Assembly (NCBI GenBank): GCA_041489155.1
Contig: JBGPQP010000002.1
Span: 54,449 to 118,448, forward strand
DNA from: Candidatus Aenigmatarchaeota archaeon
GTDB taxonomy: Archaea; Aenigmatarchaeota; Aenigmatarchaeia; QMZP01; QMZT01
Reading direction: 5' to 3'
DNA length: 64,000 bases
Made by a program: the position numbers. Below are positions 48,001 to 64,000 of this stretch, piece after piece (positions within the stretch are counted from its first letter, which is position 1; every line of letters starts with the position of its first letter).

Positions 48001-51000
48001 CATGTTCGGGTAGAATTCGTTGCCGCCCGGCAGGCTGAATGAGTAGCTTACGTTTATGCCGAGCGCGCCTGCCGTAGTCGAGTTCCTCGTTATGCTGTAG
48101 CTGGCATTGTTGACGAATATCTGCTCTATCTTCATCCAGTCGGTGTAGCGGTAGAAGATGTAGCGCTTTATCATGTAGCCCTCGTTTGTCTTGTTGCCCG
48201 GCTGGCTCCATAAAATTTCCTGGCCTATCTGCTCCACAACAAGTCTCACGGGTCCGGAATACTTCAGCGTGGCGTTGTTCCTGAAGTCGAAGCCGAACCT
48301 GCTGCTTGCATTGGAGAATTCGGAGTACTCGACGGTCATGTTGGTGGTATCATCGACCCTCAGCAGATCGTTTTCGTAGGCAACGTCCTGAACATGGTAA
48401 ATGCCGGATGTGTTTTCTCCTCGCTCGGTGTCAATCTTCCAGCGGAACAGACTGTTGTTGACGTAGAATTCCGCGACGTTCCCTGTGTAGTTATAGGACA
48501 AATCCGTAGGATAGCTTGGCTTGGTTTTGTTGCCATTCTGGATTATGTCGAAGTAAATGTAGAAGTAGCGCTTCTGATTCGCAGCGGTGGTGCCGTTCAT
48601 GGTGAAGGCTATTACGCCGGCTGCGTTGCTTATTGAATTATAGTTGTCGCCCATGTCGAACTGCGACGGGATTTCGTGCAGTATTGAGCCGCTTGAATTG
48701 TATTCTATCACTCTCGTTGAATTCTCATCAAACGCCCCCGTTACACTCATGTTCTGGAGAAGCTGCGTGAAATTCACAGGATACTCGATGGTCCAGTTGG
48801 TTCGGTTATAACCCGTGTTGTTGATTTCGAGCCCGACTCTGTAATGCCACTTGATGTCCCACCATCTGTAATCGTATGTCTGCGAAAAGATGCTGGAGAG
48901 GTTGACCAGCATCATGACAGCCAAAATTGCAATAGCTAAAATCAATTTTCCATGCCGGATTTTGGTCACCCTTACTTTTTGCCCAGAATCACTTTTCTCG
49001 TTTTTTCATAAGCTTCCTTGCTTATGAAACCTTTCTTGTAAGTTTCTTCCAAATCTTTCAGCAGCATTTCATTCCTTGACTTTGCTTCTTTCGGAACTTC
49101 TGGTTTCCTTTCCTTCGCTGCCGGTTTTTTGGGCGGTGCAGGCTCTTCCTCGGTCATTCTGGGCGGGGGCGCTGCCTTTCCGCCGCCTTTCATCTTGCTT
49201 TCTATTTCCCTGATTTTCGCAAGGTTGGCGTTCCTCATTTTCTCGTATTCTTCCTTGGAAATCGATTTGTTCTTGTACTCGTCCTCAAGGGTCTTGAGAA
49301 GCATTTCAATTTCCTCTTTCTGGGAATCAAGGCTGTAAGATTCAACCGTCGAAACTGGCTGCGCCGCCATGGTCGTCTGTATCGCAGACCTGAATGATTC
49401 GAGGTCGTCCTTGGTTATAAAGTAGGCGCTTTTAGTGCTGAGGTCGTTCAGGTTCTTCATTACCTCATTTAACAAATCCTCAACCCTTTCCTGTTTGGCG
49501 CGGTAGAGCATGAACTCCTCCATCCTCTTGCTGAGCTCGGCATAGATGCCCTGGATTTTGTCTCGCATCTTTGTGTTTACTCTCTGTATGTCGCCCATCT
49601 CCATCAGCTTCTCTGATGCATCGTTGCTTATGCTAAGCACGTGCTCGAGGCTGCCTATGTTGCGCAAAAGGGTTTCGATCCTCTTCAGCATTTCGCCGAA
49701 TTCCTTCGTAGTCTCCTCAAGCTTGCTCAGGCGGAGGCCGAGGTTGCCTATCTCCTTGTCCCTCCTTCCCATGTCCATAAGTATTTTATCGGGCTCTATC
49801 CTGCCCATCACGTCCATTACCTTTTCGAACTTTATTTCCTGCTCTTTCACCGATGCCTCCCTTCCGTAGACCATCGTCCTTATCTCGGCAACGCCTTCGG
49901 CGACGTGCTGTATCTTTTCCTCATCGATTCTTTTGCCTTCCTTCACAGCCTCGACCTGGGCCTTCATCTTGTCAATTTCTGCCTCGAATTTGGCAAAGCT
50001 GTTCTTCATCTCGAGCAGGTCTTTTTCAGTGACTTTCGTCCCTATGTCCTCTACCATTTCCTTTATCTTCTCTGCGAGATCGATTTCCAGTTTTTCTATG
50101 TCATCTTCGCTTATTCCTGCAACTGTTTTCTCTCCCTTCGCCTTGCCCCTTTTCTCCTTCTTCTCTTCAGGTTTTTCCTCTGCCTCTTCGGCTTCTTCTT
50201 CGAAGGTCGGTATGGCGACAGGAAGCCTCGGAAGCCTTGTGGGTGCCGGCGCCCTGATAGGCTCAATCGCTGCAACAGGTTGCCTCTTCGAGAGTGAATC
50301 TATCTTCCTGTTTATTTCCTGAAGCTTCTTCTCGTTCTTCTCCTTTATGTCGTTATAATCGTCCTCAAGAATCGCGGCCTCGCTGTAGGCGTCTTCAAGC
50401 GAGGAAAGCAGCGCCTCGATTTCCTCCTTCTGGTGCATAAGCTGCTCGAGGCTTTCCGCAGGAAGCGGTTCGGTTTTGGCGGCTTTACGAGAAGCTGGAG
50501 TCTTTTTTGTTACGCTCTTCCTTACCCTATCCTTTTTCACCCTTTTCCCCATAATAATTAATTAAGTGCAATAAAATAAATAGGAGTACTTCGTTCTCGT
50601 TTTATGCCTTGAGCCTTGCTTTAAGCGATTCTATGTAGCTTTCCGCCATCGAGAACTGGCCGGCCTTCATCTTGTCCTTAGCTAGGTTGACCTCTATCTC
50701 CATGTCTGTCGTGTCGATCTTCCTAGTCTTCAGCGCCTCTATCTGCTTGTCTATTTTTTCGATTTCCTGCTGGACTTTCACGTATTTCTCGATCTCCTCG
50801 TCGGTCAGCCTGCCCGTGTCGTGCAGCAGCGGGCGGAAGGAGATAAAGTATGGCTTGCCGTCGTTGTAGGCCGGGTTCTGGACGAGCGCCGTGCCTGTCG
50901 TCAGCTTCACGACTTTCGATGCGTAATCCATGCCGTACTTCGTCTTAACCCTGCCGATGTCGCCTTCGTACTTCGTCCTCAGCTGTAGCTCTGTCGCTAT

Positions 51001-63000: not shown

Positions 63001-64000
63001 GACGGTCTGGTTGCAGCCCGCGTTGCCCCACGTGTTGCTCTTGTTCACGTAGACGCAAACCTCCATCATGTCCATATCCTCATCGCTGGCGTTCACCGTG
63101 AACGTGTATGCCTCCCCCCAGCCGCCGTCTCCAGATGGTGTCAGCGACCACCCTGTAAGAACCGGTCTGGTGTCTATGAAAAAGGCGAAATTCGCCGTGT
63201 CATTGTCAGGGTTGTAGAAACTCCTGTTTGAATAAATGTTTATGTGGTAGAACCTTGCAGGCATGCCTGACGTGTTGAAGGTGCAGTTGTAGGTGCCGTT
63301 GCCTTCCTCAAGTATCGTGGTGCAGTTGAACTGCTGACCTGTGTCGTTGTGTATCATGGTAAGATTAATGTTGGAAGCAGAGCCAGTGATATTGTTGCCG
63401 CAGAAGTCCCTGAGCCTTACCCTTATTGTCACATTTGAGCCGCGAATGTATTGCGAAGACGCTCCCATAGAGCTTATGGGAGAAATGAAGGTGTTGTTCA
63501 GGTCGCCTATAACGCGTAGAGTCAGGTTGCCTGTGTAATTTTTCTCATCATAATAGCTGTCAACAGTTCCTCCTTTCCACTCCCTTATGCCTGGCTTATA
63601 GCTGCAGTTCGGGTTAAAAGTGTAGTTTATGTAACCGTTTGCTGTTTGGGAGCGGTTGCCCGCGTCCCATGCAGTCTCGTTGAACATGACCCATATGGTA
63701 GAATTGACGCCCGAGGGATAGGATATGTTGTCTGTGTCATTCACCCTTAACACAAGCAGGATCGAGCTGTCAGGATTCGAGTCGCTTATGTTGACGTTTG
63801 AGTTGTTGCCTGCCACGTAGAGTATCGTGACATTCGACCTCTCGAGGTAAGGGCCGTATGCGACGCTGGTGTAATGCTCGTTCGCTGTTTCTCCGTCCTT
63901 GATGAGGAAGCGGAACGAGTTGTTGCCGATGTCGTCGCCGGTGAAGTCATGGACGGTGACGGAGCAGTTCCTGTTGACTATGCCGGTTGTGTTGTAGAGG

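Follow-up and report, generated by a model that had tools for sequence, protein, structure and literature searches.

Giant surface proteins with a conserved cytoplasmic tail are already on record for DPANN archaea. SPEARE proteins of Nanohaloarchaeota were described as giants that lie mostly outside the cytoplasm, with a membrane helix close to the C-terminal end and a conserved C-terminal region inside the cell, and the passages of that paper used here report a size of 8,553 aa, short forms (655 and 717 aa), related sequences from Aenigmarchaeota, Woesearchaeota, Micrarchaeota and Altiarchaeales, an ectodomain with at least one laminin-G plus other adhesion domains, and a tail interpreted as restriction-enzyme-like (Hamm et al., 2019, PNAS; PMC6642349). 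The design appeared again under the name 'giant membrane-anchored extracellular proteins', with the tail assigned, in the passages used here, to the VirB4/TraG-like ATPases (Reva et al., 2023, Front Microbiol; PMC10266531). By the description given there, SVXNc_0300 and BNXNv_0298 start with a Sec signal peptide and have an ectodomain rich in Ig domains, which a single helix links to a cytoplasmic ATPase of VirB4/TraG/HerA type; they also have a coiled-coil tip, and the next gene encodes a VirB4-family ATPase. We found no literature pairing DPANN with DUF87; among the matches listed for DPANN and HerA, none concerned the tail family by title or abstract start, and the portions seen of a dark-matter paper (PMC4158269) and an ARMAN paper (PMC5498576) held nothing bearing on it.

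Here we analyzed a 64,000-nucleotide stretch of a Candidatus Aenigmatarchaeota genome, referred to as the window, in which one such gene runs off the contig end with the following features:

50602..63999, minus strand: giant SPEARE-type gene, C-terminal 4,465 codons plus stop, a single open frame with its 5' end lost at the contig end
51829..63999, minus strand: ectodomain part (aa 1-4057), with all 268 of the 268 N-glycosylation sequons of the 4,465-codon frame and repeat modules of ~340 aa (aa 1-1925)
52450..52572, minus strand: G/A/P-rich low-complexity linker (aa 3810-3850), read from the translation
51829..52449, minus strand: beta-rich stretch of ~200 residues next to the membrane (aa 3851-4057), conserved in the family (consensus columns N-terminal to the helix in alignment A1)
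51736..51828, minus strand: predicted transmembrane helix (aa 4058-4088), the sole Kyte-Doolittle window above 1.5, with a basic cluster behind it
50803..51687, minus strand: HerA/VirB4-clade P-loop ATPase core (aa 4105-4399) with Walker A, Walker B D-E and a REFRKWG...SQ motif
51514-51540, minus strand: Walker A of the ATPase core, AGATGSGKS
51145-51150, minus strand: Walker B D-E of the ATPase core
50605..50802, minus strand: family-specific C-terminal three-helix extension (aa 4400-4465; model helices 360-385, 391-405 and 409-424, pLDDT ~90)

The portion inside the window is the C-terminal third of a protein of ~12,900 residues, whose gene is split over six contigs in its own genome. The window lacks the N-terminal ~8,400 residues, which are encoded by contigs C13, C25, C29 and C32/C39 of this genome, collinear with the giant gene of a near relative, and this tiling gives the total length. 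In a genome of the same taxonomic family the giant gene is uninterrupted at 14,526 codons. A gene in six pieces, on a window contig that stops inside a repeat, might be taken for an assembly chimera or a mis-called frame that fuses an ATPase gene with a surface-protein gene. This is refuted for practical purposes by the recurrence of the same fusion at no fewer than 506-580 places in species-representative genomes and by the intact frames of relatives; in addition, locus DNA was present at 0.68-0.71 of sampled words in two more sediment runs from other studies. No RNA run was among the sequencing runs listed as containing window positions 48900-52900.

The sequons (268 before the C-terminal helix, none after it in the window fragment) and the basic cluster predict that the bulk of the fragment lies outside and its C-terminus inside. 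An earlier note on this DNA had described an extracellular part joined by one helix to an intracellular HerA/FtsK-type ATPase; sequons, Pfam and the structure model agree on this, and the sequons predict heavy glycosylation of the ectodomain. In the structure prediction the helix is long and extends into the cytoplasm. The ~340-aa repeats were found by a tiled search (self-BLAST of the whole protein returned the identity match alone), and Pfam matched NPCBM_assoc at aa 3081-3156 and, weakly, Filamin. A Cys-rich mini-domain (CGDGQC..., aa 3789-3809, read from the translation) directly precedes the G/A/P-rich linker, and the membrane-proximal stretch, over which a weak Nis1 match falls (aa 3965-4061), resembles part of the 1,992-aa protein encoded nearby (A1 profile against that gene, E 1.2e-7). 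As a lead only, atlas neighbours of the ectodomain carry Ig-like families. Laminin-G, serine-protease and nuclease domains were absent by Pfam from the window protein, the C13 part and the intact G097 orthologue; for Laminin_G this means no match at E<=0.01 in the first two or E<=0.001 in the orthologue, and contigs C25, C29, C32 and C39 lay outside the scan. We therefore treat laminin-G as a nanohaloarchaeal trait and file the window protein under the tail-defined family only. The further domains ascribed to SPEARE type proteins, likewise absent here by Pfam, are disputed in the passages used of Reva et al. (2023; PMC10266531).

The earlier note's 'one transmembrane helix' holds for the window fragment and fails for the whole protein. 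The full-length giant opens, on contig C13, with a cytoplasmic winged-helix domain followed by another membrane helix, which places both termini in the cytoplasm. The model of this N-terminus has a helix-helix-helix-hairpin order (pLDDT >90 for aa 11-60), and all of the ~50 Foldseek matches listed were winged-helix proteins (best E 8.6e-4); Pfam HTH_IclR scored 1.1e-3, under its cut-off. The model thus points to a winged helix of DNA-binding type, MarR/IclR/TFE-like, with DNA binding as a prediction. Bitopic one-component regulators of the ToxR/CadC type consist of a cytoplasmic DNA-binding domain, one helix and an external domain. The N-terminal part of the window giant has the same order, but ToxR/CadC carry an OmpR-like winged helix, and the external part here exceeds theirs by two orders of magnitude and leads back into the cytoplasm. 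The giant could accordingly be read as a contact sensor, in which binding at the ectodomain would alter either DNA binding by the winged helix or the release of the winged helix itself, with the ATPase as modulator. The position of the winged helix directly before the first membrane helix would fit such a sensor, as would the occurrence of the module elsewhere as a separate winged-helix-membrane-ectodomain protein of ~300 aa coupled to the giant gene, and as many small stand-alone paralogues. Many members of the tail family, however, have a plain signal-type hydrophobic N-terminus in place of the winged helix; the conserved tail is thus not accounted for by this module, and we regard the sensor as highly unlikely to be the main function.

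The tail relates the window protein directly to the published proteins. In BLASTP it matched AOV95205.1 (40% over 346 aa, E 2e-88) and PSG99524.1 (39% over 369 aa, E 2e-93), both named as SPEARE proteins or matches in the passages used of Hamm et al. (2019; PMC6642349). Together with the shared architecture of a mostly extracytoplasmic giant that passes, through a helix close to its C-terminus, into a conserved cytoplasmic end, this identity makes it very probable that the giant belongs to the tail-defined SPEARE family. The novelty of design that the earlier note implied is accordingly lost to the two published accounts. The winged helix and second helix at the N-terminus set the window giant apart from SPEARE, as does its length of ~12,900 aa, with relatives of up to 14,526 codons, against the reported 8,553 aa.

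The tail contains a RecA-like core, Walker A, Walker B, an arginine motif and a HerA-like fold. The G/G/G/K of Walker A, the D/E of Walker B and REFRKWG were invariant in all 37 sequences of the tail-family alignment (A1), and the three-helix extension is conserved both in A1 and in SPEARE proteins. By eye the C-terminal hairpin resembled a SHOCT motif; this candidate was rejected when profile-profile comparison of A1 with A3, the alignment of the SHOCT coiled-coil partner family described below, gave a 22-column match at a probability of 4%.

HerA sensu stricto has an N-terminal barrel domain and a NurA nuclease partner. Sequence profiles of the tail favour HerA families, but identity to archaeal HerA (Sulfolobus HerA, PDB 4D2I; HerA-NurA) is 13-20%. 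The barrel is missing, as the DUF87 match begins at profile position 1 (aa 4128), just ~40 residues past the helix; Pfam found no NurA-like family among nine cluster proteins; and the tail, unlike HerA-NurA, is membrane-tethered. Compared with VirB4 (4AG6), the N-terminal domain PF03135 is lacking and there are no T4SS membrane partners nearby; compared with type IV coupling proteins (TrwB 1E9R, TcpA 6O1W), the window cluster has no relaxase or T4SS context, and the TraD and TraC models scored 19 bits against cut-offs of 366 and 567. FtsK (2IUS) differs as well, with FtsK_SpoIIIE reaching 16.3 bits against a cut-off of 24 and no divisome context; the combination of a motor above threshold with a multi-pass N-terminal anchor that marks FtsK/SpoIIIE was not found in the window giant. 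HerA-type ATPases also occur in anti-phage defence, and PDB neighbours of the tail include Sir2-HerA and DUF4297-HerA complexes, with PADLOC matches to mad8 (3.2e-15) and several HerA models. These matches are confined to the shared ATPase core, the defence systems are soluble where this tail is tethered to a glycosylated ectodomain, and the cluster encodes neither Sir2 nor DUF4297, nor a nuclease or any other partner known from defence. Since the partner families are absent from the neighbours, the defence reading was dropped as very improbable.

The earlier note's claim of a tail family widespread in DPANN was borne out by sampling: the tail is present in 93 of the 201 genomes sampled within the organism's own phylum and in 33 of the 151 sampled within a second DPANN phylum. 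In two non-DPANN phyla it was seen solely in the seed genome, none of 150 other genomes having it. The note had left shorter and bacterial relatives to be checked, and this check returned one bacterial-labelled record and a few non-DPANN-labelled ones, mostly on short contigs (one, labelled Hadarchaeales, on a contig of 33.7 kb). Short relatives proved common, including complete members of ~550 and 725 aa, so size varies within the family. With ectodomains ranging from ~50 to >14,000 residues, the tail is the conserved part of the family and the ectodomain the variable part. These searches differed in reach: a single nanohaloarchaeal tail as query gave 4 close relatives, the 'longer' set of the protein search with the L080 tail covered proteins of 743-2,120 aa, and the 80 loci listed by the alignment A2 search did not include the named SPEARE type organisms.

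The giant gene heads a conserved cluster that comprises a SHOCT coiled-coil protein, a second glycoprotein of ~2,000 aa and an archaeal MinD:

48972..50552, minus strand: cytoplasmic coiled-coil protein of 526 aa that carries three SHOCT-like motifs, the conserved immediate downstream partner
42991..48969, minus strand: 1,992-aa second glycoprotein with signal peptide, 116 sequons, one helix and a cytoplasmic tail of ~80 aa with a SHOCT-like motif
42176..42847, minus strand: 223-aa soluble protein of no known family (Pfam, PADLOC and NCBIfam without match)
41368..42141, minus strand: 257-aa archaeal MinD-type ATPase (NCBIfam TIGR01969 minD_arch, 238.8 bits against a cut-off of 201.75; Pfam AAA_31, CbiA, ParA)
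41073..41339, minus strand: 88-aa protein with one N-terminal membrane helix, with a homologue at 4 of 80 related loci
34352..41060, minus strand: three coiled-coil proteins of 637, 1,201 and 397 aa, their stops and starts overlapping

That the giant gene stands beside genes for another large surface protein, MinD and coiled-coil proteins had been pointed out before, and comparison across 80 related loci shows this cluster to be conserved. The 526-aa protein has a tblastn match at 74 of the 80 and a complete downstream ORF at 69; within its family of 33 members, Pfam SHOCT and SHOCT_2 were each found in 7. The second glycoprotein recurs as a separate downstream ORF (1,712-2,103 aa, 28-64% identical) at 26 loci. 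Homologues of MinD and of the 223-aa protein were counted at 28 and 10 of the 80 loci, respectively, both counts being limited by flank length.

The neighbourhood bears on the type IV secretion-like 'straw' proposed in the passages used of Reva et al. (2023; PMC10266531), in which Ig-like domains bind the host and the VirB4/TraG-like tail exports effectors. The likeness in general build to SVXNc_0300 and BNXNv_0298 ends at the flanks, as the window giant starts with winged helix and helix and is followed by the SHOCT coiled-coil protein, the second giant and MinD. The next gene is thus not an ATPase, either here or at the 69 related loci, and the cluster holds no VirB4 N-terminal domain, VirB3/6/8/10-like protein or polytopic membrane protein. 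The preference of the profiles for HerA also argues against a straw, and a string of beta-sandwiches would make no obvious sealed tube. We consider the straw improbable for this locus.

The same neighbours could instead suit a hub without transport, where the ring would oligomerize, anchor and remodel the fibres, the SHOCT protein, MinD and coiled coils would serve as a positioning scaffold, and ATP would control assembly or tension. Scaffold-type operon partners, namely the coiled-coil proteins and a MinD that clears its cut-off, the lack of a channel component in the cluster, and the match between the SHOCT-like motif in the cytoplasmic tail of the second giant and the motifs of the coiled-coil partner all speak for it. 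The characterized relatives of the tail fold, on the other hand, are without exception polymer translocases or secretion ATPases, and the 4% probability between tail and partner families counts against a hub, which we judge unlikely, though less so than the straw.

The reading we prefer, with a rough probability of 0.45 as a whole, is a double-anchored SPEARE-family envelope protein with a ring ATPase at a localized contact apparatus, most likely working as a translocase. The chain starts in the cytoplasm with the winged helix, crosses the membrane, forms an N-glycosylated, beta-rich ectodomain of ~12,400 residues outside, and re-crosses to place the HerA/VirB4-clade ATPase and its helical extension inside. 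By analogy with structural relatives, the tail may form a ring on the inner membrane face, and several giant ectodomains would therefore be bundled. The extracellular 'filament' coupled to an intracellular 'motor', as the earlier note has it, is likewise a putative reading. Ring and operon partners may then build a localized contact apparatus facing a host or a surface, a role that we consider rather probable. The ring itself might be a membrane-tethered polymer translocase like FtsK, coupling proteins or the Ced ATPase; across all substrates this step is tentative, with DNA judged likelier than protein. The winged helix may bind the translocated DNA, or be a membrane-tethered regulator that reports contact. 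Against a translocase stand a cluster of nine proteins without polytopic channel candidate and, by Pfam, without nuclease, relaxase or T4SS component, the thin basis that six single helices would offer for a DNA conduit, and the scores of named translocase families on the tail (16-38 bits against cut-offs of 366-970). Enzymes of nucleotide synthesis are also encoded in the genome (CTP synthase, GMP synthase, amidophosphoribosyltransferase and aspartate carbamoyltransferase), which leaves no evident need for DNA scavenging. Because different size fractions are reported for ectodomain and cytoplasmic part in the passages used of Hamm et al. (2019; PMC6642349), the two may also separate after synthesis.

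In its most specific form, the protein would be a closed loop and not a free fibre, a glycosylated hairpin of 12-14 thousand residues with winged helix and HerA/FtsK-type ring side by side inside, a contact-dependent DPANN organelle for uptake or exchange of host DNA that MinD and coiled coils place at the host contact. In FtsK it is the gamma domain that plays the part the winged helix would play here. We consider this closed loop improbable.

Among candidate genes for the attachment of DPANN archaea to their hosts and for the traffic of material between the two, those of the SPEARE-type giants are the most prominent. The window leaves the basic design as published unchanged and sharpens its size, its double anchor and its partners; set against the passages used of the two accounts (PMC6642349, PMC10266531), the full size with double anchoring, the conserved operon and the sampled distribution are new. 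The Aenigmarchaeota giant gene reaches 13,000-14,500 codons, above the 9,409 aa cited for the largest protein in cultivated archaea in the portion used of Reva et al. (2023; PMC10266531). The SHOCT coiled-coil protein, the second giant and MinD form a defined set of conserved partners. The double anchor with a domain of DNA-binding type makes a different geometry likely and hints at a part in DNA handling or in signalling. Should the tail be a translocase, a membrane-tethered motor fused directly to an adhesin would be a novel type.

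The large gene reported in the earlier note proved real and correctly described: it is one frame of 4,465 codons cut by the end of the contig, and its Pfam matches were reproduced (DUF87 with E 1.1e-9 at residues 4128-4188, HerA_C and NPCBM_assoc, with FtsK_SpoIIIE under its cut-off). The features considered here, in window coordinates, are as follows.

1494-5307 (-): second, soluble DUF87/AAA ATPase (433 aa) adjoining a pair of platform genes of the T2SSF (FlaJ/TadC) type; possible type IV filament locus whose ATPase is unusual
6011-8353 (-): geranylgeranyl reductase gene with an intein-like LAGLIDADG_3 homing-endonuclease insertion between the FAD-binding and catalytic parts
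31241-32167 (+): 308-aa protein with an S_layer_C domain, near the giant's cluster on the opposite strand; candidate S-layer component
42991-48969 (-): 1,992-aa glycoprotein downstream of the giant
50602-63999 (-): giant frame, single uninterrupted ORF, leaving the window where contig C2 ends (118,448 bases)
52450-52635 (-): giant residues 3789-3850, a Cys-rich CGDGQC...C...DC mini-domain followed by a 41-residue Gly/Ala/Pro linker

A Kyte-Doolittle scan (19-residue windows) of the giant frame exceeded 1.5 in a single segment, residues 4058-4088, and the second-highest value was 1.25. All 268 NxS/T sequons, where composition predicts 78, lie N-terminal of this helix and none falls in the 382 residues behind it. 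An Arg/Lys run directly follows the helix, and on passing it the Asn content drops (10.2% to 2.4%) and that of Lys increases (2.3% to 11.3%). On the sequon distribution, the Arg/Lys run and this shift in composition, the ectodomain is outside and the C-terminal tail inside. The Cys-rich mini-domain and its linker, located immediately outside two membrane-proximal domains, could be a hinge or processing site.

The remainder of the gene was found on other contigs of the source genome (1.13 Mb in 39 contigs, 89.65% complete, one copy of the tail). Contigs C25 (2,281 codons), C29 (1,266), C32 (934) and C39 (668) are open end to end and carry sequon-rich modules like those of the giant, the first 51 residues of C29 are the first 51 of the window frame, and a 3,868-codon frame leaves the end of C13. 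In G001, a near relative whose tail is 95% identical, the giant region is on one long contig, on which the six pieces are collinear and in order.

Positions of the six pieces of the giant gene on the contig of G001
C13: 736,756-748,406
C25: 748,968-755,784
C29: 755,938-759,768
C32 and C39: up to 761,775
Window frame: 762,142-775,597

This span of 38.8 kb corresponds to ~12,900 codons. The source assembly broke at near-identical repeat units of the giant, and five further contigs (C25, C29, C32, C39 and C13:1-11604) come from the one gene, which occupies ~3.4% of the genome. In G001 itself the gene is broken into eight overlapping frames (G001:C2:736750-775597, loci L088-L090), which we take for sequencing errors of that assembly rather than a pseudogene.

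The frame on C13 begins with a domain of ~65 residues, a linker and a hydrophobic segment (~residues 94-125), after which sequons set in. Matches to its 135 N-terminal residues were found in 100 of 201 genomes surveyed from the phylum, and in two of these they share an open frame with the tail: G152 (14,236 codons) and G097, of the same family as the source genome (14,526 codons without a stop). In the G097 protein, hydrophobic segments occur at 91-121 and 14,114-14,155 and nowhere else, and all of its 923 sequons lie between the two. The single transmembrane helix of the earlier note therefore stands for the window fragment but not for the full protein, which carries a second, N-terminal hydrophobic segment. 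Structure prediction (pLDDT >90) gave a helix-helix-helix-hairpin for the N-terminal domain, which is a winged helix; the Foldseek matches listed, ~50 in number, are all winged-helix DNA binders or transcription factors (such as MepR, TFE-alpha and AspA), the best of them at a modest E of 8.6e-4, and Pfam matches were under their cut-offs. A HRHT...Y..EL.GA motif is invariant in 19 aligned sequences. Three genomes (G007, G080, G042) encode the module as a separate protein of 285-317 aa, consisting of winged helix, helix and ~190 external residues, with a stop that overlaps the giant's start. Given these shared frames and overlapping genes, module and giant are linked, either fused or as coupled neighbours, depending on the genome. 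With such a module, the giant may alternatively be a ToxR-like contact sensor. The winged-helix domain also has many paralogues in the phylum, as ~300-aa membrane proteins and as stand-alone proteins of 70-110 aa, the latter often two or three in tandem (e.g., G131:C1:317147-317531 and G069:C3:33280-33664).

The 425-residue tail was aligned with 36 relatives of up to ~740 aa, comprising fragments and complete short members. Walker A (G-x-x-G-x-G-K), Walker B (D-E) and an R-E-F-R-K-W-G ... S-Q motif, which aligns to AREGRKFG...SQ of Sulfolobus HerA, were invariant in all 37. An AlphaFold model from this alignment was confident (pLDDT 83, pTM 0.80) and showed a long helix including the membrane segment, a RecA-like core and three C-terminal helices. 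HerA and VirB4 are practically tied as fold matches of the model, and sequence profiles favour HerA. The tail differs from both: with only ~40 residues from the helix to where the DUF87 match begins, it is without the N-terminal barrel of HerA, and by Pfam it is without the N-terminal domain of VirB4. Since the nearest NCBIfam models (CedD, HerA, TraC, TraD and TraB) scored far under their cut-offs (16-38 bits versus 366-970), the tail is a separate family within the HerA-FtsK superfamily.

Our literature search on DPANN archaea with HerA-type proteins gave, among the papers listed, none on a giant-ATPase family by title or abstract, and for DPANN with DUF87 there was no paper of any kind. The earlier note had implied such a gap, but the family is already in print. 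Hamm et al. (2019; PMC6642349) described the SPEARE proteins of Nanohaloarchaeota as mainly extracytoplasmic, of up to 8,553 aa, with a membrane helix close to the C-terminus and a cytoplasmic portion that is their most conserved part and was interpreted as restriction-enzyme-like; short versions (655 and 717 aa), production seen by proteomics, and similar sequences in Woesearchaeota, Aenigmarchaeota, Micrarchaeota and Altiarchaeales were also reported. Reva et al. (2023; PMC10266531) re-analysed them with two new ones (9,409 and 8,880 aa), describing a Sec signal peptide, ~75 Ig-like domains, a single helix, an ATPase resembling VirB4/TraG and a coiled-coil tip, and put forward a 'straw' akin to type IV secretion. 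Among proteins of 3,123-5,000 aa, 84 matched a Nanohalobium-labelled tail, two of them accessions named in Hamm et al. (2019). The window tail aligns with both, PSG99524.1 (39% over 369 aa, E 2e-93) and AOV95205.1 (40% over 346 aa, E 2e-88), with every motif kept, and on this alignment the window protein belongs to the tail-defined SPEARE family. AOV95205.1 is locus AQV86_04780 of Nanohaloarchaea archaeon SG9, with 3,315 aa in the protein collection, in conflict with the Fig. 7 legend of Hamm et al. (2019), which pairs it with a 4,057-aa protein and locus AQV86_02335; the pairings in that legend seem shuffled. Unlike the SPEARE proteins of Hamm et al. (2019), the window giant, its N-terminal part on C13 and the intact G097 orthologue had no match to laminin-G, protease or nuclease families. 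The terms 'MinD' and 'helix-turn-helix' are absent from the main texts of both papers. What makes the giant a noteworthy variant, and not a new kind, is its double anchor with a winged helix, its length of ~13,000 residues and its conserved operon.

An exhaustive search with the tail recovered 1,080 proteins at E<=1e-3; at E<=1e-30 the count was 359 representative clusters. Lengths among the best 150 matches were 356-7,665 aa. Shorter and bacterial relatives, which the earlier note had left unsearched, were both checked: complete members of ~552 and ~725 aa occur on long contigs, and in the phylum of the bacterial-labelled genome the tail was found in the seed alone of 151 genomes sampled. In 185,579 species genomes, pattern scans confirmed at least 506 and at least 580 relatives. 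That the fusion of giant and ATPase is an artefact was rejected on these at least 506 relatives and the uninterrupted G097 frame.

Prevalence of the tail (E<=1e-30) in genomes sampled by phylum
Own phylum: 93 of 201 genomes (45 of 92 high-quality), 1-3 copies each
Phylum to which a Woesearchaeota-labelled genome belongs: 33 of 151 genomes
Phylum that includes the Heimdall-labelled genome: the seed alone, of 151
Phylum that includes the bacterial-labelled genome: the seed alone, of 151

Nearly all of the named records are DPANN; a few carry other labels: Euryarchaeota archaeon SM23-78 (one record), and Heimdall-, Thor-, Thermococcus-, Hadarchaeales- and Halanaerobiaceae-type, these five mostly on contigs of a few kb (the Hadarchaeales-labelled contig has 33.7 kb). 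In the Heimdallarchaeota- and Halanaerobiaceae-labelled assemblies the tail genes (L007/L130 and L094/L097) are on contigs of 3.5-3.9 kb, which are probably mis-binned, since 150 further genomes of each phylum were sampled and none had the tail. The phylum survey yielded up to three tail-bearing frames per genome, in size classes of ~725, 2,205, 2,950-3,000, 4,300-4,700 and 10,000-14,526 codons; discrete classes and several copies suggest multiple old paralogous lineages.

The clustering of the giant with a second surface protein and MinD was borne out, with MinD above the curated archaeal cut-off and partners recurring in the best 80 related loci of species-representative genomes. The cytoplasmic, coiled-coil 526-aa protein downstream of the giant, with three SHOCT-like motifs (Pfam SHOCT and SHOCT_2 each in 7 of 33 family members), had a tblastn match in 74 loci and a complete ORF in 69, usually starting within ~100 bases of the tail's stop. 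Matches to the 1,992-aa glycoprotein were found in 69 loci; in ~20 the best was the giant's own ectodomain, in 26 a separate downstream ORF (1,712-2,103 aa, 28-64% identity), and the others end too early for assignment. This neighbour has its membrane-proximal module in common with the giant (profile match E 1.2e-7) and ends in a SHOCT-like tail where the giant has its ATPase. The two look like paralogues built on one chassis and differing at the cytoplasmic end. MinD was present in 28 loci, and 10 had the 223-aa protein; the flank of 10 kb sets a limit to both counts. With MinD and coiled coils as partners, the giant may also be a pure scaffold or anchoring hub. Polytopic membrane proteins, nucleases, relaxases and T4SS parts are absent from the nine cluster proteins. 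Secretion of a T4SS-like kind, the published model, may be another reading. A defence-system reading of the tail was rejected, no defence partner being present in the cluster.

Beyond the established architecture, catalytic-motif conservation, partners and phyletic range, we propose that the tail would form a ring, as its relatives do, and that this ring would bundle the ectodomains of the giants. It might also translocate a polymer, to which we assign a probability of about one in three; DNA is a first guess, because the tail shares its side of the membrane with the winged helix and has DNA translocases among its relatives. Against translocation are the lack of a channel component, the weak matches to named translocases and the nucleotide-synthesis genes of the source genome. 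Together with its operon partners, the giant would build a localised contact apparatus.
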